Assembly (NCBI GenBank): GCA_944388705.1
Contig: CALXJU010000001.1
Span: 14,674-78,673 of the forward strand
Direction: 5' to 3'
DNA from: an uncultured Clostridia bacterium
Lineage (GTDB): Bacteria > Bacillota > Clostridia > TANB77 > CAG-508
Length of the DNA stretch: 64,000 nucleotides
The notes under the pieces are model-generated. The model saw nothing but the letters and a program-made list of their open reading frames with translations. It did not search any database and had not been told where the DNA came from. A program made the position numbers and the translations under genes. Below are positions 2,427 through 56,840 of this stretch, in pieces. Position 1 is the stretch's first letter. Each line of letters starts with the position of its first letter.

Positions 2427-2912
2427 ATGGAAAAAGTCAGATGGATAAAATTAAGCACAGATATATTCTCTAATAGAAAAATTAAAATCTTACTAAAAGA
2501 AAGGGATGGGGACACCTATTTTAGAATGTGGATTCAAATTTTAACTATTGCTGGAGAATGCAACAGAGGTGGAGGACTATATATTAGTGACGATTCACCA
2601 TTTAAAATCGAAGATTTTACAAACATTATCGGAAAATCTTCCAAAACTTTTACGAAAGTTTTACAAAAATTTGTAGATTTGGGCATGCTAATTTATAAGG
2701 ATGATACATACTTTGTGAAGAACTGGAATAGGTATCAAAGTACTGAAAAATTCAACAAAATTATAAAATCAGCTAAAGTAATTGAAGAGAATGAAAATGA
2801 AAAAAGTTCTGAAAATGAGACTATAGATAAGATAAGAAAAGATAAGACTATAATAGAAGAGAAAAGAAAGGAGAAAGAAATAGATGAATCAAATTTTGAA
2901 ACCCTCGTTTGA
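2427..2912 (+). CDS. phage replisome organizer N-terminal domain protein (DnaD-like)
   Basis: The N-terminus MEKVRWIKLSTDIFSNRKIKILL...TYFRMWIQILTIAGECNRGG is typical of phage replisome organizer proteins. Confidence 0.7.
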   Translation: MEKVRWIKLSTDIFSNRKIKILLKERDGDTYFRMWIQILTIAGECNRGGGLYISDDSPFKIEDFTNIIGKSSKTFTKVLQKFVDLGMLIYKDDTYFVKNWNRYQSTEKFNKIIKSAKVIEENENEKSSENETIDKIRKDKTIIEEKRKEKEIDESNFETLV

Positions 2913-4848: not shown

Positions 4849-6369
4849 ATGGCAAAAAAAGAATCAAGTACAACACTTGGATATGAGGATAAATTATGGC
4901 AAGCAGCGGACAAGTTAAGAGGTAGTATGGATGCGGCAGAATATAAGCATGTTGTGCTAGGGCTAATATTTTTGAAATATGTATCTGATGCTTTTGAAAC
5001 TAGACAGAAACAATTAGAAAAGGAAGAACTTGCGGATCCAGAAGACAAAGACGAGTATATTTCTGAAAATGTATTTTGGGTTCCAAAAGAAGCAAGATGG
5101 GAAGAAATATTAAAGCATGCAAATACACCAGAGATAGGTCAGATTATAGATAGAGCAATGGAAGCTATCGAAAAAGAAAACCCAAGATTAAAGAATGTAT
5201 TAAATAAAAATTATGCTAGACCAGAATTAGATAAAACAAGATTAGGTGAATTAGTTACACTATTTACAAATTTAGAAATAGGGACAGATAAAGCAAAAGA
5301 AATAGATATGTTAGGGAGAGTATATGAATATTTCTTGAGTAAATTTGCATCCGCAGAAGGAAAAAATGGTGGAGAGTTCTATACTCCAGCATGTATAGTA
5401 AAAACCTTGGTATCCATGATTGAACCATTTAATGGAAAGGTATATGATCCTTGCTGTGGTTCTGGAGGAATGTTTGTTCAATCTTATAAATTTGTAAAAG
5501 AACATCAAGGAAATTTAAGAGATGTGTCAATATATGGGCAAGAAAGAAACCCTACCACTTGGAAATTAGCTAAAATGAATTTAGCGATTAGGCAAGTTGA
5601 TGGAAATTTAGGAGATAGGAATGCAGATACATTTTTTAATGATTTGCATAAAACTCTAAAAGCAGATTATATACTTGCTAATCCGCCATTTAATATTTCT
5701 GATTGGGGTGGAGATAAACTAAAGGAAGATATAAGATGGAAATATGGTGTACCACCAGTAGGAAATGCTAATTATGCATGGTTACAACACATGATTCATC
5801 ACTTGAATCCAGAAACTGGAGTTGCAGGTACAGTTTTAGCCAATGGAGCATTGGCAAGCGATTCTAGTGGTGAAGGTGAGATTAGAAAGAATATGATTGA
5901 AGGTAGAATAATTGAATGTATAGTGGCTATGCCAAGTCAATTATTTTATGCTACAGGTATTCCTTGTTCTTTATGGATAATGAGAAAAAATAGAGATGAA
6001 AGCACAAAAGATAAGATTTTATTTATTGACGCAAGAAATTTAGGAACAATGGTAGATAGAAAAGTAAAAGAACTTACAGATGAAGATATTAATAAAATTG
6101 CTAGTACATATCATAATTGGAGAAAAAATGAGGACTATGAGGATGAATTAGGCTTTTGTAAATCTGCAACAATAGAAGAAGTAAAAGAAAATGATTATGC
6201 ATTAACTCCTGGAAGATATGTAGGTACACCAGAAGAAGAGGATGATGGAATACCATTTGAAGAAAAGATGAAGAAATTAACTGACGAATTATCTAAACAA
6301 TTAAAAGAAGAAGAAGCTCTTAATGTAGAGTTAAAAAAAGTGTTGGGAGCGATTGGATATGAAATTTAA
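4849..6369 (+). CDS. hsdM: Type I restriction-modification system DNA methyltransferase subunit M
   Basis: HsdM N-terminal signature [32 protein letters not shown] motif [10 protein letters not shown], catalytic NPPF in [12 protein letters not shown]. Confidence 0.95.
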
Positions 6370-6901
6370 TATGGTAAAAGCAAGTGAGTTTTGTGATTCA
6401 GTTAGAGATGGAACACATGATTCTCCCAAAAGAGTAAATAAAGGTTATAAGTTAATTACATCGAAACATATAAAAGAATATGGATTAGACTTAGAAAATG
6501 CTTATCATATATCTGAAAAAGATTTTAATAAAATAAATGAAAGAAGCTTAGTTGAAAAGAATGATATTTTGTATAGTATGATAGGAACAGTTGGGCTTAT
6601 TCATAGAATAGGCTATGAGCCTAATTATGCAATTAAAAATATAGGATTATTTAAGTTGAATGATGAAATAAAAAGTAAGTGGTTATATTATTACCTTAAA
6701 AGCCCTAAAATGAAATCTTATATTAATTCATTATTATCTGGTAGTACTCAACAATATATTACACTAAACAACCTAAGAAACTTACCAATAGCAATACCAG
6801 AAAATTATATTGATATGATTAAAATAATTAAAATTTTAGAGTTACTAGAAAAAAAGATTAATATAAATGCTCAAACAAATAATAATTTGTTAGTTGCTTA
6901 A
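6353..6901 (+). pseudogene. hsdS: Type I RM specificity subunit, 5' part (TRD1 plus central conserved region), ended by an in-frame stop inside a 46-bp insertion
   Basis: Start overlaps hsdM stop. The conserved central motif ILELLEKKININAQTNNNL is followed by LVA-stop. The homologous full-length copy at 8641 reads straight through (TNNNLYEIGKALYQEY). Confidence 0.75.
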
Positions 6902-6932
6902 AATTTTATAAATCAATTAGATAAATAATAAT

Positions 6933-7568
6933 TTGTATGAAATAGGAAGAGCTTATTTTGAAAATTATTTAGAAAGTTGTAAAGAAGAAATTAGTATAAA
7001 AGAAGTAGCTAATGAAATATTAGACTATCATAAATCTAAAGAGAAAAAAGTTAAACTAATAAATAGTAGTGATATAACAGAAAATAATTTCCCAGAATTT
7101 GAATTTGTTGATAATTGCAATTTAAAAGGACATTTCAAGAAGAGATTTAGAAAATATGATATATTATATTCTCAAATAAGGCCTAGAAACCATCATTTTG
7201 GATATGTTCTTTTTGGAAATACTGAAGAATATATTGCTTCAACAAGACTGATGGTTGTTAGAGCTAAAGAAGAGAAAATTTCAAGTTCATTACTATATTA
7301 CTATTTAACATCAAAAGAAGCAATAGAAGATTTTACAACAAAAACTGAAACTAGATCAGGAACTTTCCCACAAGGAAATTATGGGGATCTTTCAAGTTTT
7401 AAAATAAAATATAATAAAAATCAAGAAAATATAACGAATGTTTTAAACATTGTTTTAAATAGAATATATTCAAATCAATTAAAAACTAAAAATTTAGAAA
7501 AAATTAGAGATGCACTACTACCAAAACTAATGAATGGCGAAATAGACCTAGACAAAATAGAAATTTAG
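6933..7568 (+). pseudogene. hsdS: Type I RM specificity subunit, 3' part (central repeat remainder plus TRD2 plus C-terminal conserved region)
   Basis: Begins MYEIGRAYFENYLE, which continues the broken central repeat. Ends IRDALLPKLMNGEIDLDKIEI, identical to the C-terminus of the hsdS at 8641-9816. Confidence 0.75.
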
Positions 7569-7630
7569 TCATACAAATTGTTATTTGTTAACATAAATAG
7601 TATAATATTGCTTGGGAGGAATGATATTAT

Positions 7631-8632
7631 ATGGAAAAGGAAGAGATGATTTTAACAATAACAAATGAAATGTCTAATAATTTAACTAATTATCAGCTTG
7701 AATTATTAAAAAATGTACTAATAATAAAATTCCAAAATATTGAAATTACAGTATTGACTGATGAAATAAAGAAAAAGGAAGAACAGAATACTAACGAAAA
7801 ATTTATAAATTCCTTTTTATCTGCAAAAGAAATTGAAGGATGCTCTCAAAGGACGATATCTTATTATAAAGAAAACATACAACGTTTAATATCTAAATTA
7901 GAAAAGCCTATTAAGGGGATTACTACTGAAGATATAAGAAATTATCTTTCAAATTACAAGGAAACAAATAATTGTGGTAGTGTGACAATTGATAACATTA
8001 GAAGAGTATTTTCTAGTTTCTTTGCTTGGTTAGAGGATGAAGATTATATTATTAAAAGTCCTGTAAGAAGAATTCATAAAGTTAAGGCTGCATCGATAAT
8101 TAAAGAAACTTTTACAGATGAGAATATAGAAAAAATGAGAGATGAATGTAAAAATATTAGAAATTTAGCTATAATTGAATTATTAATATCTACAGGAATG
8201 AGAGTTGGAGAATTAGTTAATTTAAATATAGAAGATATAAATTTTGAAGATAGATCTTGTATTGTTCAAGGGAAAGGTAATAAGCAAAGAGAAGTATATT
8301 TTGATGCAAGAACAAAAATACATTTAATGCAGTATCTAAACATAAGAAAAGATGACAACAAAGCTTTATTTGTATCTAAAAATAAACCACATCAGAGGTT
8401 ATCAATTTCAGGAATCGAGCTAATTGTTAGAAAAATAGGAGTTAAAACGGATGTAAATAGAGTTCATCCTCATAAGTTTAGGAGAACATTAGCTACTATG
8501 GCAATAGACAAAGGAATGCCAATAGAACAAGTTCAGAAACTACTAGGACATGTAAAAATAGAGACAACAATGCATTATGCAATGGTAAATCAAAATAATG
8601 TAAAAATATCGCACAGAAAATATATAGGATAG
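7631..8632 (+). CDS. tyrosine site-specific recombinase (XerC/XerD/phage-integrase family)
   Basis: C-terminal catalytic motifs HPHKFRRTLATMAIDKGMPIEQVQKLLGHVKIETTMHYA (R...HxxR...Y). Embedded between two hsdS genes. Confidence 0.9.
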   Translation: MEKEEMILTITNEMSNNLTNYQLELLKNVLIIKFQNIEITVLTDEIKKKEEQNTNEKFINSFLSAKEIEGCSQRTISYYKENIQRLISKLEKPIKGITTEDIRNYLSNYKETNNCGSVTIDNIRRVFSSFFAWLEDEDYIIKSPVRRIHKVKAASIIKETFTDENIEKMRDECKNIRNLAIIELLISTGMRVGELVNLNIEDINFEDRSCIVQGKGNKQREVYFDARTKIHLMQYLNIRKDDNKALFVSKNKPHQRLSISGIELIVRKIGVKTDVNRVHPHKFRRTLATMAIDKGMPIEQVQKLLGHVKIETTMHYAMVNQNNVKISHRKYIG

Positions 8633-8640
8633 GAGGAAGA

Positions 8641-9816
8641 ATGAAGCTAGTTAAGTTAAGTGATATATCAAATAAGATTACAAAAGGAACAACTCCACAA
8701 AAGGAAGCATTTCAGGGAAAAGAAGTTAATTATATTAAATCTGAAAGCTTAAATTATAATGGACATATAGATATTAATTCTTTTTGTAGCATTGATATGG
8801 CAACACATAAATCAAAATTAAAGAGGTCAATTTTAAAAGAAAATGATATTCTTATATCTATTGCAGGAGCAAATTTGGGGAAAATAGGTATAGTAAGTAA
8901 AGATATGCTTCCTGCCAATACTAATCAGGCAGTGGGAATAATATCTTTAAAGCCTAATTTAGTTAAAAGTAGATATGTTTACTATTATATGCAGCAAATT
9001 AGAATAAGAAATATTATAAATAACTCTGTTGCACAGTCGGCACAACCAAACCTAAATCTTACACAATTAGGAAATATTAAAATTGAACTTCCTCAATTAA
9101 ATATACAAGACAAAATTATAAAAATATTAGATATTATATCAAAAAAAATAGACTTAAATATACGTACAAATAATAATTTGTACGAAATAGGAAAAGCACT
9201 TTATCAAGAGTATCTTGAAAATGAAGAATATACAAATAATTATGAAATAAGACAATTAAGCGAGATAACAACTAATAACAGAAATAAGATAGATCAAACT
9301 AAAGAATATAAAGTCTTATCTGCTGTTAATACTGGTAATCTAGTATTATCTGATGATTATTTTGATAAACAAGTTTATAGTAAAGACATAGGAAAATACT
9401 TAAATGTTAATAAAAATGACTTTGCTTATAATCCTGCGAGAATAAATATAGGTTCAATAGGATTAAATACTTTTGATTTTAACTGTTGTGTAAGTCCTGT
9501 ATATGTTACATTTTCAGTAGATAAAGATTATATAGATTTCTTTGATTTCTATTTTAAATCTAAAAGATTTAATGCTGAAGTAACATTAAGAGCTTCTGGC
9601 TCAGTTAGACAAGCTTTAAATTATAATGATTTTGGAATGATAGAAATACCATATCCGACAAAAGAAATGATTGAAAAATTTAATAGTTCATACAAAACAA
9701 TAAAGGAAAGAATCAATATAAATAAAACTAAAATAAGCAATTTAGAACAACTTAGAGATACACTACTACCAAAACTAATGAATGGCGAAATAGACCTAGA
9801 CAAAATAGAAATTTAG
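8641..9816 (+). CDS. hsdS: Type I RM specificity subunit, intact two-TRD copy
   Basis: 391 aa with two different target-recognition domains, a central repeat KILDIISKKIDLNIRTNNNLYEIGKALYQEYLE and a C-terminal repeat LRDTLLPKLMNGEIDLDKIEI. Confidence 0.9.
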   Translation: MKLVKLSDISNKITKGTTPQKEAFQGKEVNYIKSESLNYNGHIDINSFCSIDMATHKSKLKRSILKENDILISIAGANLGKIGIVSKDMLPANTNQAVGIISLKPNLVKSRYVYYYMQQIRIRNIINNSVAQSAQPNLNLTQLGNIKIELPQLNIQDKIIKILDIISKKIDLNIRTNNNLYEIGKALYQEYLENEEYTNNYEIRQLSEITTNNRNKIDQTKEYKVLSAVNTGNLVLSDDYFDKQVYSKDIGKYLNVNKNDFAYNPARINIGSIGLNTFDFNCCVSPVYVTFSVDKDYIDFFDFYFKSKRFNAEVTLRASGSVRQALNYNDFGMIEIPYPTKEMIEKFNSSYKTIKERININKTKISNLEQLRDTLLPKLMNGEIDLDKIEI

Positions 9817-9862
9817 TCATACAAATTGTTATTTGTAAAATAAATAGAGAGGAATGAAAGAT

Positions 9863-19757: not shown

Positions 19758-20507
19758 ATGGTAACAAATATTCAAAAAGGATATCCAAAAGAAGTAAAAA
19801 TAAAGAGAGAAATGAGAATTAAAGAAGCATTAAATTTTGAAAGAGGAACAAAAGAAAGACCAAAAGAACATATTATTGGAGAAGTAAATAATAATAAAAT
19901 ATATTTTTTAAAACCAGGGAAAGAATTTTTTAGAGAAAGAAACAGAAATATAAATGATATGACCCCATATGTAGGAAAATTATATGAAAACTATTCTTTT
20001 AGAAATATATGGAAAGACATGTTGAATTTATCAGTTCGAATTAGTATAGAGTCATATAAACAGTTAAATGTATTGTTATATAGATTAGCATATTTAATGG
20101 ATTGTACAATAGTAAATGAAAAAGTAAGATATGAACCAAAAGGAGAAGTACTTGAGACAATTAAAAATATTCAAAATGAAATTGACAAAAAAGTTTATGA
20201 TTTTAAAGTATTAGAATTTTTAAACTTTATAGATATTTTAAGTTGGAATGAAGACGTAAAATATCAATCAGATTGTAGTTTCAAAAAAGAGAAAGTAGGA
20301 AGAATAAACACAATATTAAGTTTAATATCTATACCATTAATTTTTAAACAATTTGTTGATGAAATTATAGAAAACAAAGATTCCTTAGAACAACTTGACT
20401 ATTCGTTATTAATTGATGTTGCTCAAAATTTTTCAAGAGCAAGAGGAGTTCATCCTATATCAAACAAAAAATTAATTGAATATTTAAGTCCATACCTAAG
20501 CGAATAA
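19758..20507 (+). CDS. hypothetical protein directly upstream of the cytosine-5 methyltransferase (possible restriction-enzyme partner)
   Basis: 249-aa ORF with RBS AAGGAG. No recognisable nuclease motif. Position only. Confidence 0.45.
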   Translation: MVTNIQKGYPKEVKIKREMRIKEALNFERGTKERPKEHIIGEVNNNKIYFLKPGKEFFRERNRNINDMTPYVGKLYENYSFRNIWKDMLNLSVRISIESYKQLNVLLYRLAYLMDCTIVNEKVRYEPKGEVLETIKNIQNEIDKKVYDFKVLEFLNFIDILSWNEDVKYQSDCSFKKEKVGRINTILSLISIPLIFKQFVDEIIENKDSLEQLDYSLLIDVAQNFSRARGVHPISNKKLIEYLSPYLSE

Positions 20508-20594
20508 AATATAAAAAATTTTCAATTGAGTTTTACAAAATTGAAAAAATGTTATAAAATAATGAAGATAAAATCAAAAAGGAGTTATACAAGA

Positions 20595-21801
20595 ATGATA
20601 GAAAAGACAGTGTGTGAACTATTTGCTGGAGTTGGAGGTTTCAGAGTTGGATTAGAAAAAGCTGATTCTAATTGGAATACAGTCTGGGTTAATCAATGGG
20701 AACCTAGTAGAAAAAGTCAGTATGCATTTGATTGTTATGTATCACATTTTGGAAAAAACAAAAATTATATAAATAAAGATATTGCAAGTATAGATAAAAA
20801 TAACATTCCAGACCATAATTTATTAGTAGGAGGATTTCCATGCCAAGATTATTCAGTAGCAAGGACTGGAGCAAAAGGAATAGAAGGAAAAAAAGGAGTA
20901 CTTTGGTGGGAAATTAGAGATATCTTAGAAGCAAAATCACCTAAGTTTGTTCTTTTAGAAAATGTAGATAGACTATTAAAATCACCATCTAATCAAAGAG
21001 GACGCGATTTTGGAGTAATATTAGCATGTTTTAATGATTTAGGATATACAGTTGAATGGAGAGTAATCAATGCTGCAGAATATGGATTTGCTCAAAGAAG
21101 AAGAAGAATATTTGTTTTTGCTTGTAAGAATGATACTAATTATTTTAAAACAATAAAAAATCAAAATCTAGAAGATGTAATACATAAAAATCGGTTTTTT
21201 TGTAGAACAATTTGATATAAATTCTAATATTAACGGATGTTATAAAGAATTTAAATATAATAATCTATATGATGTTTCAGATAATTTTAAAATGGACTTT
21301 AAAAATGCTGGAATAATGAGAAATGGATTAATTTACACTGAAGAAGTAATTCCCAAAGAGATTAAATATACATCATTAAATAAAATTGTTGAAAAAGACG
21401 GCGTAGAAGATAAATATTATTTAGGAAACAATTTAGAAAAATGGAATTATTTAAAAGGAGCAAAAGATATTTTAAGAAAGGCAGGAACTCCACACGAATA
21501 TCATTTTAGAGAAGGAGCTATAGCTTTTCCAGATTCATTGGACAAACCAGCGAGAACAATGCTTACAAGTGAAGGCAGTCTTAATAGAAGCACACATGTA
21601 ATAGAAGATCCAAAAAGTAAATGTTATAGGATATTAACACCATTAGAAACAGAAAGAATAAATGGATTTCCAGATAATTGGACAGATACAGGAATGCCAC
21701 AGAGTTTTAGATATTTTTGCATGGGAAACGCATTAGTTGTAGGATTAATTGAAAAAATGGGAGAAAGGTTAAATAAAATATTTGAAAGCGAGGATAATTA
21801 A
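20595..21801 (+). pseudogene. DNA cytosine-5 methyltransferase split into two ORFs by a frameshift in a T7 tract
   Basis: N-part (20595-21215) has motif I FAGVGGFRVG, motif IV GGFPCQDYS and motif VI LLENV. C-part (21292-21801) has NGFPDNW and GNALVV. Removing one T from the T7 run at 21195-21201 fuses them. Confidence 0.8.
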
Positions 21802-30094: not shown

Positions 30095-30841
30095 ATGAAA
30101 GCATTAATTACAGGTGCATCTTCTGGAATAGGAAGAGACATAGCAAAAGAACTAAGTAAAAAAGGTTATGATTTAATATTAGTTGCTAGAGATTTAGAAA
30201 AATTAGAACAAGTAAAAAGTGAAATAAAAACAAATGTAGAAATAGTCAGTATGGATGTTTCTAGACCTGAAAATTGCGAACAATTACATAAACAATTTAA
30301 AAACATAGATATACTTGTAAATAATGCTGGGTTTGGAGATTGTGGAGATTTTACAAAAACAAAGCTTGAAAAAGAAATAAAAATGATAGAAACAAATATA
30401 ATTGCTTATCATATTTTAACAAAATTATATTTAAAAGATATGAAACAAAAAAATTGTGGAAAGATATTAAATGTTGCTTCAATTGCAGGATTTATGCCAG
30501 GGCCACTAATGGCAACATATTATTCGACAAAAGCATATGTTGTTAGATTATCTGAATCATTAAGGGAAGAATTAAGAAGAGATAAATCAAAAGTTCAAAT
30601 TAGTATATTATGTCCTGGTCCTGTTGATACCAACTTTAATAAAGTTGCAGATGTTCAATTTGCTTTAAAAGGATTAAGTAGTGAGTATGTTGCAAAATAT
30701 GCGATTGAAAAATTTTTGAAAGGAAAATTTTATATTGTCCCTAGTTGGAAAATAAAACTTGCTAAATTTGCATGTAAAATAGTACCAAACAATATTGTTG
30801 CAATGGTTTCATATAATATGCAAAGAAGGAAAATTCAATAA
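30095..30841 (+). CDS. SDR family NAD(P)-dependent oxidoreductase
   Basis: TGASSGIGRDIA cofactor motif; YSTKAY catalytic YxxxK. Confidence 0.85.
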   Translation: MKALITGASSGIGRDIAKELSKKGYDLILVARDLEKLEQVKSEIKTNVEIVSMDVSRPENCEQLHKQFKNIDILVNNAGFGDCGDFTKTKLEKEIKMIETNIIAYHILTKLYLKDMKQKNCGKILNVASIAGFMPGPLMATYYSTKAYVVRLSESLREELRRDKSKVQISILCPGPVDTNFNKVADVQFALKGLSSEYVAKYAIEKFLKGKFYIVPSWKIKLAKFACKIVPNNIVAMVSYNMQRRKIQ

Positions 30842-30891
30842 ATGGTATAGATTAAATATTAATCTATACTTTTTTATACAATAAAAATTAC

Positions 30892-31068
30892 ATCATTAAT
30901 TAATATGATTAAAGATGTCAAAATCTTCATAAACTAAGTGTTAACAAAATTTTTAAATTTTAATCTTATTTTTATTAAATTAAATATTTTTTATAAATCT
31001 CTTGATTTTATTAGATTTTATTGATATAAATTTGTCTATAAATATCATTAATCATATTAATTAATGAT
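30892..31068. repeat. pair of perfect 21-bp inverted repeats (atcattaattaatatgattaa) flanking a 135-bp AT-rich segment upstream of the pilin/LRR gene
   Basis: Left copy 30892-30912. Right copy 31048-31068 is its exact reverse complement. The enclosed segment contains a promoter-like TTGATA...TATAAA. Confidence 0.6.
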
Positions 31069-31132
31069 ATATAGTATTTACAAATACTATATAAAAATAT
31101 ATAATAAAATTAATTAAAAACAAAGGAGGAAA

Positions 31133-32365
31133 ATGATGAAAAATAATAATAAAGGAATAACATTAATAGCATTAGTAGTAACAATAATAGTGTTGATAAT
31201 ATTGGCGAGTATAAGTATAGGAGCATTAACGGGAAAAAATGGAATAATAAATCAATCAAAACAAGCAAAGGAAGAAACAGAAATAGCAGAAGAAAAAGAG
31301 ACAGTTGAAATATCAGCTGTACAAGCTGCAGGAATGGACAGATATGGAAATGTAACAGAAGAAAATCTTAGAAATCAATTAAACAAGAATATAGGAAATG
31401 GAAAATATGAATTAGAGGTAGTAGGAGAAAAATTTAAAGTAACATATACAGAATCACAAAGAAGCTATTATGTAGATAAAGATGGTAATATAGAAATAGC
31501 GGATGGAAGTAATAGTGACGATGGGATATATAGTGAATCAGTATCAGAAGATGAGATAGCACCAGAAGATTTATTCAATTATGAAATAATTAATGATGGA
31601 AGAACAGCAAAAATTGGAGATATAATGTTGCCTGAAAAAACAGTAAAAATAACAGGAATAAAAGCTAAATATTGTAATGAAGATGGCTATAATCCAGATA
31701 CAGGAAGTGCAGATTTACCAGATACTAATTATGAAATAATATATGAAGGGCAAAAGATATCAGATACATTAGTTATACCATATAAAGTAGATGGAAAATT
31801 TGTACAAGGAGGTATAGAAGGAGAAGAGTACACTATAGCAGAAGTTGATTTAACAGTATATTCTTCAGATAAAAGAGGAGACTATATGAGTATGCCTCAT
31901 GTTGAAACAATAATATATCCGAATACAGTAGAAAAAATTTATTCGACACCAAATTCTTTTGGAGGGAAGACAAATTCAAAATTAAAAAAGGTAATATTAC
32001 CAGAAAATATAACAGAAATACCTAATTATATGTTTAAGTATTGCTCAAATATACAAGAAATAGAAATTCCTGAGAATGTAACAAGTATAGGAGAAGATGC
32101 GTTTTTTATGTGTTCTAGTTTAAAAAATATTATAATACCAAACAAAGTAGTATCTATAGGAGATAGTGCATTTCGAGATTGTACAAATCTCAAAACAATA
32201 ACAATACCTGAAAGTGTTGTAAAAATAGAAGAGTATGCGTTTTATTATTGCGATAGTTTAACAACAATAAATTATACAGGAACACAGGAACAATGGAATA
32301 AAATTGAGATTAATAACTCTGGTAATTCAGTTTTAGAAAACATCGATATTAACTTTATGAAATAA
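31133..32365 (+). CDS. surface protein with prepilin-like N-terminal helix and BspA-type leucine-rich repeats
   Basis: N-terminal KGITLIALVVTIIVLIILASI (class III signal/pilin-like). C-terminal repeats IPENVTSIGEDAFFMCSSLKNIIIPNKVVSIGDSAFRDCTNLKTITIPESV are typical of the BspA LRR family. Confidence 0.7.
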   Translation: MMKNNNKGITLIALVVTIIVLIILASISIGALTGKNGIINQSKQAKEETEIAEEKETVEISAVQAAGMDRYGNVTEENLRNQLNKNIGNGKYELEVVGEKFKVTYTESQRSYYVDKDGNIEIADGSNSDDGIYSESVSEDEIAPEDLFNYEIINDGRTAKIGDIMLPEKTVKITGIKAKYCNEDGYNPDTGSADLPDTNYEIIYEGQKISDTLVIPYKVDGKFVQGGIEGEEYTIAEVDLTVYSSDKRGDYMSMPHVETIIYPNTVEKIYSTPNSFGGKTNSKLKKVILPENITEIPNYMFKYCSNIQEIEIPENVTSIGEDAFFMCSSLKNIIIPNKVVSIGDSAFRDCTNLKTITIPESVVKIEEYAFYYCDSLTTINYTGTQEQWNKIEINNSGNSVLENIDINFMK

Positions 32366-42953: not shown

Positions 42954-43030
<77 letters not shown>

Positions 43031-43212
43031 TATTACATTTTTATCATTATTTTTAAATTATTAGATTATATTTATTAAAAAATTTATTCAAAATTTGTTT
43101 TCAAATATATTTCCAGTATATATATTAGAGAAAATATAACTAAAGATAAAATTGCATTGTGATTTATTTGACTTTGCAATATAGTGCAAAATATTATAGA
43201 GGAGTGATATAT

Positions 43213-44058
43213 ATGATAAAATTAGAGAAAAGTGAAAATTATAATAATCAAACTTTTGAAGATATTAAACATATTAATGAGGATGGAATTGAATATTGGT
43301 ATGCAAGAGAATTACAAAAAGTTTTAAATTATAAGGAATGGAGAAAATTTGAAAATGTAATAAATAAAGCAAAAGAAGCATGCAAAAATACTGATGTGAG
43401 TGTGTTTAAGCATTTTGTCGACGTCGACAAGTTGTCAAAACGTGCCAATAATGCGGAAGTTGTGATAAAAGACTATAAACTAACACGTTATGCTTGTTAT
43501 TTAATAGCACAAAATGGAGACAGTAGAAAAAAAGTAATAGCACTTGCACAAACATATTTTGCAGTTCAAACTAGAAAACAAGAAATTAGCGAAAAAGAAT
43601 ATAGTTCGTTAACAGAAGATGAAAAAAGATTTTATCAAAGAGATCTTACAAGAAAAGGAAATTATTCTCTTAATCAAACAGCTAAAAAAGCAGGAGTTAA
43701 AAATTTTGATAAATTTCATAATTATGGATATAAAGGATTATATAATGGAGAAAGTGCTGATGATATTGCAAAAAGAAAAGGTTTAAGATACAGAGAAGAT
43801 ATTTTAGACAACATGGGAAGTGATGAACTTATAGCAAATTTATTTAGAATTTCCCAAACAGAGCAAAAATTAAAAAAAGATAATATACAAACTGAAAAAG
43901 AAGCTAATAAAACTCATTATAATATAGGCAAGAATATAAGAGAAGTAATTGCGAAAAATGGTGGAACTATGCCAGAAGAATTACCTACACCTAAAAAGAG
44001 TTTGAAACAATTAGAAAAGGAAGATAAAAAAATGTTAAATAGAATAAATAGCATATGA
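43213..44058 (+). CDS. DinD/RhuM-family protein (DNA-damage-inducible protein D-like)
   Basis: EDIKHINEDGIEYWYARELQKVLNYKEWRKFENVINKAKEAC...KHFVDV...YKLTRYACYLIAQNGD matches the DinD/RhuM N-terminal signature. Confidence 0.6.
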   Translation: MIKLEKSENYNNQTFEDIKHINEDGIEYWYARELQKVLNYKEWRKFENVINKAKEACKNTDVSVFKHFVDVDKLSKRANNAEVVIKDYKLTRYACYLIAQNGDSRKKVIALAQTYFAVQTRKQEISEKEYSSLTEDEKRFYQRDLTRKGNYSLNQTAKKAGVKNFDKFHNYGYKGLYNGESADDIAKRKGLRYREDILDNMGSDELIANLFRISQTEQKLKKDNIQTEKEANKTHYNIGKNIREVIAKNGGTMPEELPTPKKSLKQLEKEDKKMLNRINSI

Positions 44059-46888: not shown

Positions 46889-49800
46889 ATGTTAGAAGAA
46901 TTAACTCAAGCTCAAAAAAGCATTTGGCTTACTGAGAAATATTATCAAGGAACAAGTGTAAACACAATATGTGGAACAGCGATAATTGAAGAAAAAGTTG
47001 ATTTTGTAAAATTAAAAAAAGCTATTGAAATAGTATGTCAGAAATATGACATTTTTAAATTGTGTTTTAAAATAGTAGAAGGAGAAATAAAACAAGAACT
47101 ATCTGAAAAAAATAATTTCAAGATAGAAATTATTAATGTTGCAAATTTACAAGAATTAGAAAAAGTAAGAAAGAAAATAATAGAAAAACCTTTAGAAATA
47201 GAAAGTTCAGAACTATCTCAATTTTATATCGTTAAATTTGACAATGGCGAAGGAGCATTTATAGCAAATATCCACCATATAATTTCTGATGCGTGGACAT
47301 TAGCCATTGTGTGTAAAGAAATAATTCAAATATATTCAAATCTAAAAAATAATCAAGAAATAGAAACAAAAGCTAAATATTCATATATAGAACATATTAA
47401 TTCAGAAAAAGAATATATCAAAAGTGAAAAATTCCAAAAAGACAAAAAATACTGGGAAGAAAAATTTGAAAAAATTCCAGAAGTAGCAGTAATACCAGGA
47501 AGCAAAAATGAAATAGAAAATAACATAAAAGGAAACAGAAAACAATTTACAATAGATAAAAATATAATAGAAAAAGTAAAAAAATACTGTAAAGAAAATA
47601 GTATATCACTATTTAATTTCTTTATGGCAACTTTTGGTATATATATTTCTGAGATTTCGAATTTAGATGAATTTGTAATAGGAACACCAATATTAAATAG
47701 AACAAATTATAAAGAAAAAAGTGCAATGGGAATGTTTATTAATACTGCACCATTAAAAATTAATTTAAATGGAGTAGAAGATTTCAAAACATTTGTAAAA
47801 AATATAGCAATAGACTCATTAAATATGCTAAAACACCAAAAATATTCATATCAGTCATTATTAGAAAATTTGAGAGAAAAAGACAGAAATATCCCAAATT
47901 TGTATAATATATTGTTATCATATCAAATAACTGATACAACATTAAAAGATGAAGATATAAAATATAGGTCAGAATGGACATTTAATGGATATTGTCCTGA
48001 TAATATGCAAATACATATATATGATTTTAATGATACAGATAATTTTAATATAGCATATGATTATAGAACAAGTATTTATGATGAAAAAGATATAGAACAA
48101 TTACATGATAGAATAAAACATGTAATAAGACAAGTTATTTCTGAAGAAAATATTAAAATTAAAGATATAGAAATTGTAACACCAGAAGAAAAAGAAAAAT
48201 TAGTAATAGATTTTAACAAAACACAATTAGAATATGATAAAACAAAGCCAATAATAAAATATTTTGAAGAACAAGTAGAAAAAACTCCAGAAGAAGTAGC
48301 AATGGTATTTGAAAATAAAAAATTAACATATAAAGAATTAAACGAAAAAGCAAATAGTTTAGCACATAAACTAAGAGAAGAAGGAATAACAAATAATTCA
48401 ATTGTAGGAATTATGAAAGAGCGTTCATTTGAAATAATAATAGCAATAATAGCAGTGCTAAAGGCAGGAGGAAGTTATATTCCAATTGCACCAGATTATC
48501 CTGATGATAGAATTAATTATATGTTAGAAGATAGTCATGCACAAATTGTGTTAGTAGGAAAAAAGCAACTATCAAGAATAAAAGAAGGACAAAAAGCAAT
48601 AAATATAGATTTATCAAATAAAGAAATATATGATTATAATAAGGAAAATATAGAAAATATTTCAAAACCAGAAGATTTATCATATTTAATATATACATCT
48701 GGTTCAACAGGAATACCAAAAGGTGTAATGTTGAAACAACAAAATTTAAGTAATTTTTATAATGCCATGAAGTCAACAATCAAATATTTAAATGATGGAA
48801 ACAAACATAAAATAATATCAATAACAACATTATCATTTGATATATTTGGATTTGAAACACTAATGTCTTTAACAAGAGGATTAACATTATATATGACAAA
48901 TGAAAATGAACAAAAAATAACTTCAAAACTAGAAAAAATAATAAAAGAAAATGGTATAGAAATAATACAAACAACACCATCTGTAATGAAATTTCATTTG
49001 GATAATATAGAAGATATAAAAGATTTATCTAGTCTAAAATATGTAATCCTTGCAGGAGAACAATTACCAAAAACACTAGTAGATAGATTAAAAAAAGATA
49101 TACCAGGAGTAACAATATATAATGGATATGGACCATCAGAAACAACAATATTTTCAACAATAACAGATGTGACAAATTTAGAAAAAGTAACAATAGGTAA
49201 TCCTATAGCAAATACACAAATATATATATTAAATAAAAATAAAAAATTAGTACCACAAGGAACAATTGGAGAAATATATATAGCTGGAGATGGTGTTGGA
49301 AAAGGATACATGAACAAAAAAGAACAGACAGAAAAATCATATTTAAAAAATCCATTTATAGAAAATTCTATAATGTATAAGTCAGGAGATTTAGGTTCAT
49401 TTGATTCAAAAGGAAAAATTACTTGTTATGGAAGAATTGATAATCAAGTAAAGATAAATGGATTAAGAATAGAACTTTCTGAAATCGAAAAGTTGATGTT
49501 ATCAATATATAATATATCAGATTGTGTTGTAATAAAAAAACATATAAATGATAGAGATGCTTTATGTGCATATTATACACAAAAAGGACATGTTGAAGAA
49601 GAAATAATAAAAACTGTATTAAAAAATAAATTACCACAATATATGATACCACAATATTTTATAAAAATAAATCAAATGCCACATACACCAAATGGAAAAA
49701 TAGACAAAAAACTATTACCAGAACCTAGTATTCAAGAAAATGATAAACAAATTATAAAAATAAGAAATCAAATAGATGAAGAATTAATCAAAATGATTAA

Positions 49801-52800
49801 AAAAATGTTATATGTAGAAAATATTAGTTTATCAGATACTTTACTTGATTTAGGGGGAGATTCATTAACTGCAATTACATTATCAACTAAGATATTATCT
49901 AAATTTAATGTGCAAGTTAATATAAAAGACATATTATCAAATTATACTATAAAAGATATATCAGATTTTATAAGAGATAATCAATCAAAAATTAGTGCAA
50001 AAATAAAAATAGAAAAAGCTCCAAAACAAGAATTATATCCATTATCAACAGCACAAAAAAGGATATATTATAATTCTAAAATGATAGGAGACGAAAATAT
50101 TGTTTACAATTTACCTGGAGCTGTAATTGTTGATGAAATATTGAATAAAGAAAAAGTTAATAATATATTTAAAAAGATAATAGAAAGACATGAAATACTT
50201 AGAACATCTTTTGTAATAAAAGATGATAATGTAATGCAAAAAATACAAGAAAATATAGATTTTAATATACAAACATATCAAAATACTGAAAAAGAACAAC
50301 AAAAGATAATGGAAGAATTTTCAAAGCCATTTAACTTAGAAAAAGCTCCATTATTAAGAGTAGAACTACATTATTTAGATAATAAAAAGACTTTATTATT
50401 ACTAGAAACACATCATATAGTAATGGATGGAACTGGATTAAATAATTTAATAATAGAATTTAATAGATTATATAATGGAGAAAATTTAAAAAGAATCCCA
50501 ATACAATATAAAGATTATGCAGTATGGGAAAACAAATTTAATGAAAGTGAAAATGTAAAAAAATATGAACAATATTGGGTAAATAAATTTAAAGATTGTG
50601 AATTTTCACAATTAAATTTACCATATGATTATAAAATATCAGCAAATAGAAATTATAATGGAAACAAAGTAATAAATGTAGTAGATGAACATAAATTTAA
50701 AAAAATAGAAAGATATGCTAAGAAAAAAGGAGTATCACCATATATATTATTTATATCTGCATTTTTCGTATTATTATATAAATATACTGGACAAGAAGAA
50801 ATTGTCTTAGGAAGTCCATTTGCAAATAGAAATATAAATGAAACGAAAAGAATGATAGGAATGTTTGTAAATAATATTGTTGTAAAAGGAAAAATAAAAT
50901 CAGAGGCAACATTCCAAGAATTTTTAAATGAAATAAAAGAACAAGTGTTAGATGACTTATCTAATCAGCCATATCCTTTTGATAGTTTAGTAAAAAAACT
51001 CGGAGTTACAGGCGATAACTCAAGAAATCCATTATTTGATATAATGTTTACATATCAAAATAAAGAAGAAAATATTATAAAATTACATGAAAAAGAAGTA
51101 CAAATAATAGAAATAAATAATAATATAGCAAAATTCAATTTATCATTAGAAATAAAGCCTAAAACACATTCAATTAATATTGAATATAATACAGATTTAT
51201 TTAAAGAGATAACAATAAAAAGTATATTTGAACATTATATGTACATTTTAGAACAAATAATGAATAACATTAATATTAAAATTAATGACGTAGATATGAT
51301 TACTGAAAATGAAAGTAAAATATTAGATAGGTTTAATAATACAGAAGGAGAAATAAATAATGATACAACAGCATTTTTAATAGAACAACAGGTAATCAAA
51401 AATCCGGATAATATAGCAGTTATATGTGAAGATAAATCAATAACATATGGAGAATTAGATAAAAAAGCAAATAGCTTAGCAAACTATTTAATAAAAAAAG
51501 GAATAAAAAATAATGATATAGTATGTATAATGACAAATAGGTCAATAGAGACAATTGTTGCAATGTATGCTATATTGAAAGCAGGAGGAGCATTTTTAAA
51601 TATAGATCCTACATATCCAATTGATAGAACGAAATATTATATAGAAAATAGTAAAACACAGTATGTACTAGTACAAAGAGAATTAAAAGAATTGGTAAGA
51701 GAAATCCCAAATTGTATAGAAATAGATTTAGAAAATAATCCAATATATGACTCAAATTTTGAAAAGCCACAAGTAGATATAAAAATGGATGATTTATCAT
51801 ATATAATATATACATCTGGTTCAACAGGTGTTCCAAAAGGTGTAATGCTAGAACAAGTGGGGTTAACAAATATGGCAAAAGCAATGACAAAAGCATTAGA
51901 CTACTTACATGATGGTAAAATACATACATTGTTATCAGTAACATCAACACCATTTGATATATTTGTTTATGAAATAATAGTATCATTAACACATGGACAA
52001 AGAATAGTTATGGCAAATAATGCAGAACATAGAAATCCAAAACTACTAGAAAAATTAATGAAAAAATATAACACAGATGTAATGACAGTAACACCAAGTT
52101 TAATGAAAATCATATATGATAATAGAGAAAAAGAAACATCATTAGGTTTAGTAAAAAATATGGTTTTTGGAGGAGAACCATTACCAGAAAAATTTGTAAA
52201 GGATTTAAAAGCACTTGCAAATGATATAACAGTATTCAATATATATGGACCAAGTGAAATAACAGTATTGTCAAATGTACAAAATTTAAATGGTGAAACA
52301 GAAATCACAACAGGTCCACCTATAATGAATACACAAATTCATATATTAGATAAAAATCTAAACCGAGTCCCAATAGGTGTTGTTGGAGAAATATATATAT
52401 CTGGAGTTCAAGTAGGAAAAGGATATCTAGGAAAACCAGAACTAACAAGTGAAAAATTCTTACCAAACAAATTTGGAAAAGGTAAAATGTATAAATCTGG
52501 AGATATAGGAAGATGGACATTTGAAGGAAAAGTTCAATGCTTAGGTAGAATAGACCATCAAATAAAGCTTAGAGGATTAAGAATTGAACTAGGAGAAATA
52601 GAAAGTAAAATGGAGCAATATCCGGGTATATCAGCAGCAGTAGTAAATAAAGTCAATGTAGAAGATAAAGAAAGTTTATGTGGATATTATGTTACAGAAG
52701 AACAAGCAAAAGTTGAAGAAGCAGAAGTAAAAAGCTATTTAAGAAAATACTTGCCACAATATATGGTACCAAGCTACATTGTACATTTAGAAAAAATGCC

Positions 52801-54346
52801 ATATACAATAAACAGAAAAATAGATAGAAAAGCATTACCGTTACCAAATGTAAATGAAGAAAAATTTAAAGAAAGTGACCCAAATAAATTTGACAAAACT
52901 GAACTAAAACTATTACAAATTTGGAAAAATATATTACATATAAAAAATATATCATTAGAAGATAATTTCTTTGATATAGGTGGAGATTCAATATCTGCTA
53001 TAAAAATGCAAATAGAAGCATTAAAATATGGCTTTGATTTTGAATATGCAGATATATTTAAATATCCAACAATAAAAGAATTAGCAGGAAAGAAAATGAC
53101 TCAAGTAGGAGAAAATATATCAGAATATGACTATTCGAAAATTAATAAAATGTTAGAAGCAAATCAAATAGAAAATCTAAAAACAATAAAAAAATATCAA
53201 GTAAAGAACATTTTATTAATAGGAGGTACAGGATATTTAGGAGTACATATATTAAATGAATTTTTACAAAAAGAGAAGGGCAAAATCTATTGCCTAGTAA
53301 GAAGAAAAGACAATAAAGACCCTATAGTAAGATTACAACAAAAGATAGCATTTTATTTCGGTAATGATTATTTTGAAAAATACCAGAATAGAATAAAAGT
53401 AATTGAAGGGGATATAGTCAAAAGAAATCTTGGACTTTCAAGAGAAGATAATGAATTACTAAAAAATGCAATAACAACAGTTGTAAATGCAGGTGCAATC
53501 GTTAAACATTTTGGAACGCCAAAATTATTTAATGAAATAAATGTAACAGGAACACAAAATATTGTAAACTATTGTAAAAGAGAAAGTAAAAGATTAATAC
53601 ATATATCTACAATTAGTGTATCAGGTAATGGCGAAAAAGAAGAAAATATAGAAGAAACAAAAGAAAATATAAAAAATAAAAAAATATTCAAAGAAAATAC
53701 TTTATATATAAATCAAAATATTTCTGGAATTTATACGACTACAAAATATAAAGCAGAAATTATAGTTCTGAATGCAATTGCAGAAGGGTTAGATGCACAA
53801 ATATTAAGGATGGGAAATATCACAAACCGATTTTCGGATGGAGTTTTTCAACAAAATGTTGAAGAAAATGCTTTTGCCAAAAGGTTAAAATCATTTATAG
53901 AAATAGGAGCATTCCCAGAATATTTACTACAACATGCAATAGAACTTGGACCAGTAGACTTATGTGCAGAAGCGGTAATAAAAATATTAGAACATAATAG
54001 TAAATGCAATGTGTTCCACTTGTATAATTCAAATTTATTAGAAATTAAATTATTAATATCTACTTTAAATGAATTAGGTATAAAAATACAAGGTGTAAGT
54101 GATAAAATGATGTCAGAAACAATAACAGAAATTCTAGAAGATAATGATAGAAAAGAAATATTATCTGGTATTATAAATGATATTGACTCAAATAAAAAAT
54201 TAGTATATACTTCTAATGTAAGAATAGATTCTGAATTTACAGAAAGATATTTAGAAAAAATAGGATTTTCTTGGAAAAAGATTGACAAAGAGTACATATT
54301 AAAATATATGGACTACTTCAAGAAAATAAAATTTATAAATTATTAA
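46889..54346 (+). CDS. two-module nonribosomal peptide synthetase C-A-T-C-A-T-R with C-terminal thioester reductase domain
   Basis: C domains HHIISDAWT (about nt 47270) and HHIVMDGTG (about 50420). A domains LSYLIYTSGSTGIPKGV / YGPSETT / YKSGDLGSF / GRIDNQVKINGLRIELSEIE and LSYIIYTSGSTGVPKGV / YGPSEIT / YKSGDIGRW / GRIDHQIKLRGLRIELGEIE. PCP serines LGGDSLTAI and IGGDSISAI. R domain LLIGGTGYLGVHIL (Rossmann) with YTTTKYKAE (YxxxK). Confidence 0.95.
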   Translation: MLEELTQAQKSIWLTEKYYQGTSVNTICGTAIIEEKVDFVKLKKAIEIVCQKYDIFKLCFKIVEGEIKQELSEKNNFKIEIINVANLQELEKVRKKIIEKPLEIESSELSQFYIVKFDNGEGAFIANIHHIISDAWTLAIVCKEIIQIYSNLKNNQEIETKAKYSYIEHINSEKEYIKSEKFQKDKKYWEEKFEKIPEVAVIPGSKNEIENNIKGNRKQFTIDKNIIEKVKKYCKENSISLFNFFMATFGIYISEISNLDEFVIGTPILNRTNYKEKSAMGMFINTAPLKINLNGVEDFKTFVKNIAIDSLNMLKHQKYSYQSLLENLREKDRNIPNLYNILLSYQITDTTLKDEDIKYRSEWTFNGYCPDNMQIHIYDFNDTDNFNIAYDYRTSIYDEKDIEQLHDRIKHVIRQVISEENIKIKDIEIVTPEEKEKLVIDFNKTQLEYDKTKPIIKYFEEQVEKTPEEVAMVFENKKLTYKELNEKANSLAHKLREEGITNNSIVGIMKERSFEIIIAIIAVLKAGGSYIPIAPDYPDDRINYMLEDSHAQIVLVGKKQLSRIKEGQKAINIDLSNKEIYDYNKENIENISKPEDLSYLIYTSGSTGIPKGVMLKQQNLSNFYNAMKSTIKYLNDGNKHKIISITTLSFDIFGFETLMSLTRGLTLYMTNENEQKITSKLEKIIKENGIEIIQTTPSVMKFHLDNIEDIKDLSSLKYVILAGEQLPKTLVDRLKKDIPGVTIYNGYGPSETTIFSTITDVTNLEKVTIGNPIANTQIYILNKNKKLVPQGTIGEIYIAGDGVGKGYMNKKEQTEKSYLKNPFIENSIMYKSGDLGSFDSKGKITCYGRIDNQVKINGLRIELSEIEKLMLSIYNISDCVVIKKHINDRDALCAYYTQKGHVEEEIIKTVLKNKLPQYMIPQYFIKINQMPHTPNGKIDKKLLPEPSIQENDKQIIKIRNQIDEELIKMIKKMLYVENISLSDTLLDLGGDSLTAITLSTKILSKFNVQVNIKDILSNYTIKDISDFIRDNQSKISAKIKIEKAPKQELYPLSTAQKRIYYNSKMIGDENIVYNLPGAVIVDEILNKEKVNNIFKKIIERHEILRTSFVIKDDNVMQKIQENIDFNIQTYQNTEKEQQKIMEEFSKPFNLEKAPLLRVELHYLDNKKTLLLLETHHIVMDGTGLNNLIIEFNRLYNGENLKRIPIQYKDYAVWENKFNESENVKKYEQYWVNKFKDCEFSQLNLPYDYKISANRNYNGNKVINVVDEHKFKKIERYAKKKGVSPYILFISAFFVLLYKYTGQEEIVLGSPFANRNINETKRMIGMFVNNIVVKGKIKSEATFQEFLNEIKEQVLDDLSNQPYPFDSLVKKLGVTGDNSRNPLFDIMFTYQNKEENIIKLHEKEVQIIEINNNIAKFNLSLEIKPKTHSINIEYNTDLFKEITIKSIFEHYMYILEQIMNNINIKINDVDMITENESKILDRFNNTEGEINNDTTAFLIEQQVIKNPDNIAVICEDKSITYGELDKKANSLANYLIKKGIKNNDIVCIMTNRSIETIVAMYAILKAGGAFLNIDPTYPIDRTKYYIENSKTQYVLVQRELKELVREIPNCIEIDLENNPIYDSNFEKPQVDIKMDDLSYIIYTSGSTGVPKGVMLEQVGLTNMAKAMTKALDYLHDGKIHTLLSVTSTPFDIFVYEIIVSLTHGQRIVMANNAEHRNPKLLEKLMKKYNTDVMTVTPSLMKIIYDNREKETSLGLVKNMVFGGEPLPEKFVKDLKALANDITVFNIYGPSEITVLSNVQNLNGETEITTGPPIMNTQIHILDKNLNRVPIGVVGEIYISGVQVGKGYLGKPELTSEKFLPNKFGKGKMYKSGDIGRWTFEGKVQCLGRIDHQIKLRGLRIELGEIESKMEQYPGISAAVVNKVNVEDKESLCGYYVTEEQAKVEEAEVKSYLRKYLPQYMVPSYIVHLEKMPYTINRKIDRKALPLPNVNEEKFKESDPNKFDKTELKLLQIWKNILHIKNISLEDNFFDIGGDSISAIKMQIEALKYGFDFEYADIFKYPTIKELAGKKMTQVGENISEYDYSKINKMLEANQIENLKTIKKYQVKNILLIGGTGYLGVHILNEFLQKEKGKIYCLVRRKDNKDPIVRLQQKIAFYFGNDYFEKYQNRIKVIEGDIVKRNLGLSREDNELLKNAITTVVNAGAIVKHFGTPKLFNEINVTGTQNIVNYCKRESKRLIHISTISVSGNGEKEENIEETKENIKNKKIFKENTLYINQNISGIYTTTKYKAEIIVLNAIAEGLDAQILRMGNITNRFSDGVFQQNVEENAFAKRLKSFIEIGAFPEYLLQHAIELGPVDLCAEAVIKILEHNSKCNVFHLYNSNLLEIKLLISTLNELGIKIQGVSDKMMSETITEILEDNDRKEILSGIINDIDSNKKLVYTSNVRIDSEFTERYLEKIGFSWKKIDKEYILKYMDYFKKIKFINY

Positions 54347-56536: not shown

Positions 56537-56840
56537 AATACCTCCATATAATTATACAATTTTAGTATATCAAGCCAGATTATAAAAATCAAATAAAATG
56601 ATAAAATGTCATAAAAAAGTAATATATTCGTAATATTGTTGTAATATTTTTGATTAATAAATTATAATATATAACTATTTCATAGCAAAAACATATTCTG
56701 GGTCTTCGTCGGGGGTCTTTGCTTATTCAATAGTTATATATTATAATTTATAAAATTTAAAAAATTAACAAAAAATATTGATTTTTGTCGAATAAATGAC
56801 TATAATATCGATAAATGGGATGATAACAAGGAGGAGGAAT

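Follow-up and report, generated by a model that had tools for sequence, protein, structure and literature searches.

The 177-bp intergenic segment at 30,892–31,068 of the DNA studied here very probably is, or very recently was, a promoter flipped by a recombinase, i.e., an inverton, judging from its sequence and from those of its relatives. Throughout, "the window" denotes the whole 64-kb stretch that was analyzed. It derives from an uncultured, very AT-rich (~25% G+C) gut Clostridia lineage. The switch appears to be one of a family of at least five that lie before genes for pilin-like surface proteins, most with BspA-type LRR domains. The initial annotation had proposed a recombinase-flipped promoter switch before a surface-protein gene. 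Support for this proposal comes from the dyad structure of the recombination sites, from compensated changes in their spacers, from the existence of the family, and from the inversion of one of its members, called switch 2 below.

Two Inverted Dyad Sites Bracket an AT-Rich Segment

The 21-nt sequence ATCATTAATTAATATGATTAA lies at 30,892–30,912, and its exact reverse complement lies at 31,048–31,068, with 135 nt between them. A reading of the sequence and a repeat finder both bore out the two perfect 21-bp repeats and the coordinates given for them in the initial annotation. The same annotation placed the repeats 65 bp upstream of a gene; the upstream position stands, and the distance becomes 64 nt when counted from the end of the right repeat to the first ATG. 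With two mismatches allowed, the repeat grows to 28 nt (30,889–30,916 and 31,044–31,071; 93%). The 21-nt pair is the sole copy in the window. A perfect inverted repeat longer than 18 nt, with an arm gap of 30–500 nt, arose in none of 200 first-order Markov simulations of the window, and 21 nt was reached in 4 of 100 simulations in which the whole 64 kb was set to the extreme AT content of the intergenic region. These simulations, together with the repeat finder, indicate that the repeat is real and not a chance match.

Searches for further copies gave consistently negative results. In the GTDB set of one genome per species, the 21-mer gave five hits, all of them isolated, in unrelated taxa, and attributable to chance; none belonged to a pair of sites. 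Within the window, neither an nhmmer profile of the six switch types considered here nor degenerate site patterns revealed a second copy. A phage collection contained no match to the switch, and a plasmid collection yielded only weak, AT-rich chance matches. Rfam returned nothing in the 30,892–31,068 region, and a single tRNA was its sole match in the entire window. The two-site pattern matched two viral contigs; both matches were rejected as chance, being inside coding regions and having spacers that do not match one another.

Each arm of the repeat belongs to a 25-bp dyad, ATCATTAAT-N7-ATTAA(A/T)GAT, in which two inverted 9-bp half-sites surround an asymmetric 7-bp spacer (Table 1). The gene-proximal site has a perfect half-site dyad, and its spacer reads as the distal spacer exactly reversed and complemented. 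The two sites start 152 bp apart. Simple tyrosine-recombinase core sites, of the lox, FRT, and dif type, consist of inverted half-sites flanking a short asymmetric crossover spacer. The asymmetry of the spacer sets the polarity and orientation of the site, and the spacer must match that of the partner site. Serine invertases act on dyad sites of even length, which they cut with a 2-bp stagger at the center. The 9-7-9 dyads are most likely tyrosine-recombinase core sites, a reading suggested by their layout and by the spacer covariation documented below. Thus, a tyrosine recombinase is the most likely enzyme, given the 9-7-9 dyad and its asymmetric 7-bp spacer. The odd length of 25 bp, the non-palindromic 7-bp spacer, and the lack of a resolvase-family domain among the 50 window ORFs scanned against Pfam argue against a serine invertase of the Hin, Gin, or Mpi class.

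Table 1. Features of the putative switch locus and recombinase genes discussed in the text; positions refer to the window unless a contig is named
Feature	Position	Strand	Description
SDR gene	30095–30841		Upstream of the switch; Pfam adh_short 4e-47
Intrinsic-terminator-like hairpin and T6	30845–30875	+	GTATAGATTAA-ATA-TTAATCTATAC; ends SDR gene; hairpin 30845–30869, T6 30870–30875
Gene-distal recombination site (putative)	30892–30916	.	ATCATTAAT-TAATATG-ATTAAAGAT; perfect 21-nt arm 30892–30912
Invertible interior (putative)	30917–31043	.	127 nt, 13% G+C; promoter block at gene-proximal end
Conserved promoter block (predicted)	31002–31030	+	-35 TTGATT 31002–31007, 17-nt spacer, TG 31022–31023, -10 TATAAA 31025–31030
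Gene-proximal recombination site (putative)	31044–31068	.	ATCATTAAT-CATATTA-ATTAATGAT; perfect 21-nt arm 31048–31068
Second, fixed promoter-like match outside the switch	31077–31105	+	TTTACA-17-TATAAT, 11/12; best sigma-70-like match in region
Controlled gene (predicted)	31133–32365	+	409/410 aa; gene callers start at second ATG, 31136; RBS GGAGG 31125–31129
Tyrosine recombinase	7631–8632		Intact; among hsdS genes of type I R-M cluster
Orphan tyrosine recombinase, speculative candidate for trans invertase	58049–58983	+	~311 aa; Pfam Phage_integrase 2.6e-28
Orphan integrase allele, L023	6540–7502 (L023)		Nonsense codon
Orphan integrase allele, L024	6549–7509 (L024)		Same 1-nt deletion as window
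Orphan integrase allele, L026	163–1125 (L026)		1-nt insertion in A-run elsewhere
Orphan integrase allele, L025	630–1565 (L025)		Intact, 311 aa

The Same Locus in Other Strains

Exact-protein look-ups identified eight other metagenome contigs that span the locus (L002–L004, L010–L012, L014, and duplicates). Additional Logan contigs end short of the switch, and the searchable collections hold ~10 assemblies of the organism. In all eight contigs, as in the window, the interior has the same orientation, which corresponds to the predicted ON state, and the flipped state was not seen in these assemblies. The absence of a flipped copy is a weak negative because consensus assemblies show the majority state only. 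In JGI metagenome contigs, the flipped junction and the general site-gap-site pattern had no match; this result is uninformative because the organism is absent from that collection, in either orientation.

L002–L004 are identical to the window. L010–L012, which represent a sister strain, are 96–99% identical to the window in the flanking genes, 81% in the interior, and 65–69% in the remaining intergenic DNA. The half-sites are kept in the sister strain, and the spacer reads TTGTATA versus TAATATG in the window, with a difference at 3 of 7 positions. Each of these changes is mirrored in the partner site (TATACAA versus CATATTA). Compensated changes of this kind are expected for a recombination system, if the two spacers must stay identical for strand exchange; they are not expected for transcription-factor operators.

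A different type of change distinguishes L014, from strain BRZ_AH. Specifically, an 11-nt deletion has removed the spacer of the proximal site (positions 3920–3933 of L014, equivalent to 31,044–31,068 of the window). The intergenic region of L014 is otherwise 100% identical to that of the window, and the adjacent LRR gene is only 81% identical. Thus, the surface-protein gene is mosaic. One more contig, L013, with a 72% orthologue, is uninformative: an IS91-family insertion (Y2 transposase) at 757–2200 stands in place of the switch and of the gene's 5' end.

A Family of Switches, One of Them Seen in Both Orientations

The protein encoded downstream of the window switch carries a C-terminal, BspA-type LRR_5 domain (Pfam, 1.4e-31). 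Its hydrophobic N-terminus, KGITLIALVVTIIVLIILA, is pilin-like and has no Glu at +5, and its match to N_methyl is sub-threshold (E 0.008). A homology search with this LRR protein, followed by context look-ups, uncovered related switches. Four more paralogous genes with the same pilin-like N-terminus follow such switches; three encode BspA-type LRR proteins, and one encodes a DUF285/LRR protein. The pilin-like N-terminus is conserved across all genes downstream of these switches. Family size is a lower bound, with at least four other switches and at least five in all.

Two of the other switches, switch 1 and switch 2, precede tandem paralogous pilin-LRR genes on contigs L015–L018. Some of these contigs (L015/L016) come from samples that also contain contigs carrying the window genes at 100% protein identity, and in one such sample a pair of these contigs has similar coverage (6.08x versus 5.94x). 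L020 carries switches A and B before two genes that share this N-terminus, a BspA-LRR gene and a DUF285/LRR gene. L020 may derive from a related species, as its ZIP transporter is only 49% identical to that of the window. More distant homologues, in L019, L021, and L028/L029, have no switch, and the homologue in L028 is preceded by a fixed promoter of the ordinary kind.

The half-site consensus nTCnTTAAT-N7-ATTAAnGAn is common to the window and to the switches of L010, L015, L017, and L020. Every switch pair has a private spacer that is identical between its two sites. At four loci (the window, L010, L015 switch 1, and L020 switch B), the starts of the two sites are 152 nt apart; the corresponding distances are 154 nt for L020 switch A and 169 nt for switch 2.

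Inversion is captured at switch 2, which is present in three assemblies. L015 and L016 have one orientation, and L017, from a different study, has the opposite orientation. Over its 148 nt, the L017 interior exactly matches the L015/L016 interior read on the opposite strand, and the promoter block in L017 faces the gene. The two forms have identical 22-nt repeat cores, 90 nt of identical left flank, and 120 nt of identical right flank. The occurrence of switch 2 in both orientations shows that sites of this family support inversion in nature, with the caveat that the two forms were observed in assemblies of short-read metagenomes and not in the reads themselves.

One family member has decayed. 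About 7 kb past the end of the window, L024, which is the same contig as L002, carries a degenerate switch (19,773–19,965) before a gene on the minus strand whose product shares the pilin-like N-terminus. Of its two sites, one (ATCCTTAAT-TTATTTA-ATTAAGGAT) is perfect and the other is reduced to a single half-site, and the promoter block faces the gene. This degenerate switch appears locked ON.

A Conserved, Predicted Promoter Block inside the Switch

The predicted promoter block of the window switch, a consensus match in DNA of 13% G+C, points at the LRR gene. The orientation present in the window is the one that aims a -35/-10 pair at the gene, and it is taken as ON. The motif TTGA.TTT...TTATTG.TAT is invariant in all six switch types once these are oriented by interior or block. 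At the sequence level, we predict that it represents a -35 TTGAYT and a -10 TATNNN separated by 17 nt, the last three of which are TG-N. The block always adjoins one site, and it lies 31–39 nt from the switch end in the five types scored by script; in L010, the -10 reads TATAAG, and the block was placed by alignment. It points toward the gene at four loci (the window, L010, L015 switch 1, and L020 switch B) and away from the gene at two (switch 2 as present in L015/L016, and L020 switch A).

The initial annotation had noted promoter-like hexamers inside the segment. The conserved internal block agrees with that observation, but the best sigma-70-like match of the region, at 31,077–31,105, lies outside. 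Promoter-like sites in the region are not more numerous in total than in shuffles, and the L010-type strain, in which a 14-nt indel affects this place, lacks the outside match. This match may confer basal expression irrespective of orientation, or it may be fortuitous. In the former case, the window switch would tune expression and not act as its gate. Only 22–23 nt separate the proximal site from the ATG at L015 switch 1 and L020 switch A, which leaves a fixed promoter no room, so the promoter at these two loci would have to be internal. We also considered a minus-strand TTGACA-18-AATGAT at the distal end as a second, outward promoter, and rejected it because it is not conserved in the other switch types.

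Candidate Recombinases

The initial annotation held that no recombinase is adjacent and that one would have to act in trans. The neighborhood agrees with this view. The genes around the switch encode SDR, DnaJ-domain, ArsR, and P-type ATPase proteins, and the distance to the nearest recombinase genes is 22 kb on the upstream side and 27 kb on the downstream side. With no recombinase gene next to it, the switch would require one acting in trans. A Pfam scan of 50 ORFs across the window found two tyrosine recombinases and no serine recombinase or resolvase-family domain.

The upstream tyrosine recombinase most likely serves its own type I R-M cluster, and a degenerate pattern search of the hsdS/recombinase cluster found nothing that resembles the switch sites. 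The cluster itself (4849–12,994) comprises hsdM, two half-length hsdS genes (6353–6901 and 6933–7568), the recombinase gene, a full hsdS (8641–9816), and hsdR. It contains a 131-nt direct repeat (7461–7591 and 9709–9839; 88%) and inverted repeats, e.g., 6916–6940 and 9817–9841. In its arrangement, the cluster looks like a recombinase-driven, phase-variable specificity system.

The downstream gene encodes an orphan integrase. It sits between an HD-GYP response-regulator gene and tex, outside any recognizable mobile element, and it belongs to a widespread family of 305–311-aa proteins with SAM_3 and Phage_integrase domains, whose database entries bear no gene names. In the window, the gene is split by a 1-nt deletion next to an A-run (~58,262–58,270), leaving a C-terminal ORF at 58,375–58,983. 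There are three independent lesions among near-identical strains, and the gene is intact in the more divergent L025 (Table 1), as it is in many database relatives at 70–97% identity. The nonsense allele (L023) and the 11-nt loss from the proximal site (L014) reside on one contig, BRZ_AH NODE_504. The orphan integrase is a conjectural candidate for the invertase, as its location outside mobile elements is the one thing that ties it to the sites.

How the Switch Could Operate

We propose that a recombinase encoded elsewhere, most likely of the tyrosine type, would bind both 25-bp sites as dimers and pair them across the 152 bp that separate their starts. Strand exchange inside the identical 7-bp spacers would then flip the 127-bp interior. 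In the ON state, an internal sigma-A-type promoter (TTGATT-17-TATAAA with an upstream TG) would read across the proximal site into the gene. In the flipped state, the promoter would aim at the SDR terminator, and the gene would be OFF, or its expression would be reduced if the outside TTTACA-17-TATAAT promoter is real.

A broader scenario can be entertained, tentatively and with considerable doubt. The notion is that the organism possesses a regulon of at least four to five invertible promoters with shared half-sites and with private 7-bp spacers that would block recombination between loci, and that this regulon as a whole would express pilin-like LRR adhesins in varying combinations. The orphan 311-aa integrase would act as master invertase, and its repeated inactivation in populations would freeze a favorable pattern of expression.

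Weighing Alternative Explanations

The alternative nearest to an active switch is that the locus originated as an inverton and no longer flips in this strain, the invertase having been inactivated and the gene being constitutively ON. We regard this as possible but on the whole unlikely. Every assembly of the window locus is ON; the orphan integrase is broken in the window, L023, L024, and L026, and intact in L025 and many relatives; the BRZ_AH strain that carries the nonsense allele also lacks 11 nt of the proximal site; and the decayed switch ~7 kb past the window end has no partner site. All of these observations fit a locked switch. However, nothing ties the orphan integrase to the switches, an intact tyrosine recombinase exists at 7631–8632, and the window covers only a minor part of the genome. 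Moreover, both window sites are perfect, the compensated spacers of the L010 type imply recombination competence until recently, and switch 2 differs in orientation between assemblies with identical flanks. A different matter is whether the 25-bp dyads are sites of recombination at all. In principle, the dyads could bind a transcription factor that acts as a dimer, perhaps with the DNA looped over 152 bp, and no rearrangement would be involved. Operators, too, typically show 9-7-9 dyad symmetry, the constancy of the 152-bp spacing at four loci could be a matter of loop geometry, and a gene for an ArsR-family regulator lies just downstream. Operators do not require spacers that are reverse complements, and they predict neither mirrored substitutions nor private spacers. 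They leave unexplained the exact inversion of the sister switch and the two loci at which the promoter block points away from the gene, and the ArsR gene adjoins, and belongs with, the neighboring metal ATPase genes. Operator function is accordingly improbable.

Two further readings fare worse. Terminal inverted repeats around a short, AT-rich, non-coding segment, present in several copies in related contigs, could recall a miniature inverted-repeat transposable element (MITE) or an IS remnant that landed upstream of the gene by chance. We consider this origin highly improbable: the ends show no target-site duplication, the window contains a single copy, and the copies share only the sites and the promoter block, always directly before paralogous genes and in fixed register with the RBS. 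The phage and plasmid records, with no match and weak AT-rich matches, respectively, also speak against a mobile element, and the sister switch inverts in place and does not move. Finally, the two arms could pair in RNA or DNA as a long-range hairpin, serving as a bidirectional terminator or a leader structure, and compensated changes would likewise preserve such pairing. This idea is barely tenable. With its 135-nt loop, a 21-bp stem does not make a terminator, the space before the left arm is too small for a promoter, the internal dyad in each arm would be purposeless in such a fold, Rfam has no family in the region, and the inversion of the sister switch would go unexplained. The bidirectional-terminator alternative, which the initial annotation had itself raised, also lacks support because the SDR gene has its own hairpin and T-run upstream of the left arm. 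That hairpin was indeed recognized in the annotation, at 30,846–30,870, one base away from its true position (Table 1). It forms the left boundary of the switch and is no part of it, and in an alignment with the sister-strain contigs L010–L012 its stem is kept through paired changes. Of the readings considered here, a recombinase-flipped promoter is the one we favor.

Other Features of the Window

Several observations elsewhere in the window deserve mention in their own right. Close to the orphan integrase, a perfect 23-nt inverted repeat with a 49-nt G+C-rich loop (56,657–56,751) lies upstream of the response-regulator/HD-GYP gene (56,796–57,902). The orientation of this repeat does not differ among the window, L023, and L024, and Rfam has no entry that matches it; a regulatory hairpin and a small RNA are both conceivable. 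With respect to DNA modification and defense, a C5 cytosine DNA methylase is split (20,526–21,801) into ORFs 20,526–21,215 and 21,292–21,801, which correspond to its N- and C-terminal Pfam parts; it is either a pseudogene or a split enzyme. At 15,327–17,415, a 32-nt, 94% complementary hairpin (15,327–15,396) precedes a gene pair encoding AAA_21 (AbiEii-like ATPase) and DUF3800 proteins, which could be a defense module. Phage-like genes occur at two places: a replisome organizer with a DnaC/IstB-like loader at 2427–3753, and, at 42,954–44,058, a gene for a Bro-N domain protein (43,159–44,058) directly after a tRNA-Arg (42,954–43,030). Both are possibly remnants of integrated elements. Last, the gene at 46,889–54,346 encodes a 2485-aa, two-module non-ribosomal peptide synthetase (C-A-T-C-A-T-R) with a terminal reductase and is followed by a 7TM histidine kinase gene.

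Significance and Comparison with Known Systems

An active switch would let the bacterium change the set of pilin-like LRR surface proteins on display, and thereby probably its adhesion and its ability to escape host immunity or phages in the gut. As a clean natural case, the family exemplifies two design rules of multi-locus inversion systems: shared half-sites combined with locus-private spacers, and a near-constant 152-bp site spacing. The natural variants that appear locked, by site deletion, by a decayed partner site, or by broken integrase alleles, could be used for studying the loss of phase variation. Invertible promoters before surface-protein genes are already known to be common in gut bacteria, including Clostridia, and the mechanism class is well known; the switch described here does not change current understanding.

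Surveys of gut invertons with PhaseFinder, PhaseFinderDC, and DeepInverton report a median of ~3 per genome for the class Clostridia (PMC11892184, PMC11602134). The surveyed invertons are intergenic, bear promoters, lie beside surface-protein genes, and include groups with common repeat and promoter motifs (PMC11892184, PMC11602134). Those surveys covered defined communities, whereas the organism of the window is an uncultured metagenome lineage outside them.

With regard to the sites, the window switch resembles loxP, FRT, and dif in layout, and its assignment to this class draws on that layout and on the spacer covariation. The half-sites of those systems measure 11–13 bp, whereas those of the window measure 9 bp around a 7-bp spacer, and the sequences are unrelated. 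In E. coli, a short promoter segment is flipped before a pilus gene: PMC2784873 describes fimS as inverted by the tyrosine recombinases FimB and FimE, whose genes reside in the fim locus. The fimS segment is 296 bp, excluding its inverted repeats (PMC5903667). It is thus larger than the window segment, which has 127 bp between 25-bp dyad sites, and recombinase genes adjoin fimS and do not adjoin the window switch, which sets the latter apart from the Fim type.

In its dispersed organization, the family is reminiscent of the Mpi regulon of Bacteroides fragilis. Mpi is a master serine recombinase that acts in trans on at least 13 invertible promoter regions, according to the summary in PMC5903667. 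The Mpi set comprises dispersed invertible promoters with related inverted repeats and produces combinatorial ON/OFF surface expression, as the family described here would. The Mpi system differs in having a serine enzyme, a host in the Bacteroidota, and capsule operons as targets, whereas the geometry of the window sites points to a tyrosine enzyme and the genes are of the pilin-like LRR kind.

Along with the Mpi regulon, the closest functional analogues are the RecV switches of Clostridioides difficile, which include cwpV/Cdi1, flgB/Cdi4, and others. These switches have ~21-bp repeats around 154–195-bp segments and control surface structures (PMC2784873, PMC7446863, PMC5903667). RecV is a tyrosine recombinase that is encoded far from its switches and serves several loci (PMC2784873, PMC7446863, PMC5903667). 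By analogy, the window switch shares with them a Clostridia host, similar repeat and segment sizes, probable control of a surface structure, and, as proposed here, a distant tyrosine recombinase serving several loci. Two differences stand out. At cwpV, the promoter lies upstream of the switch, and OFF results from terminator formation (PMC2784873), whereas the conserved block of the window lies inside. Post-initiation regulation of the RecV type, as at cwpV and flgB with their outside promoters, is not what the sequences of the family suggest: the predicted window block is internal, and two sister loci have no room for a promoter outside. In addition, the repeats of the C. difficile switches are mostly unrelated to one another (PMC5903667), whereas the family described here is united by one half-site consensus and individualized by private spacers.
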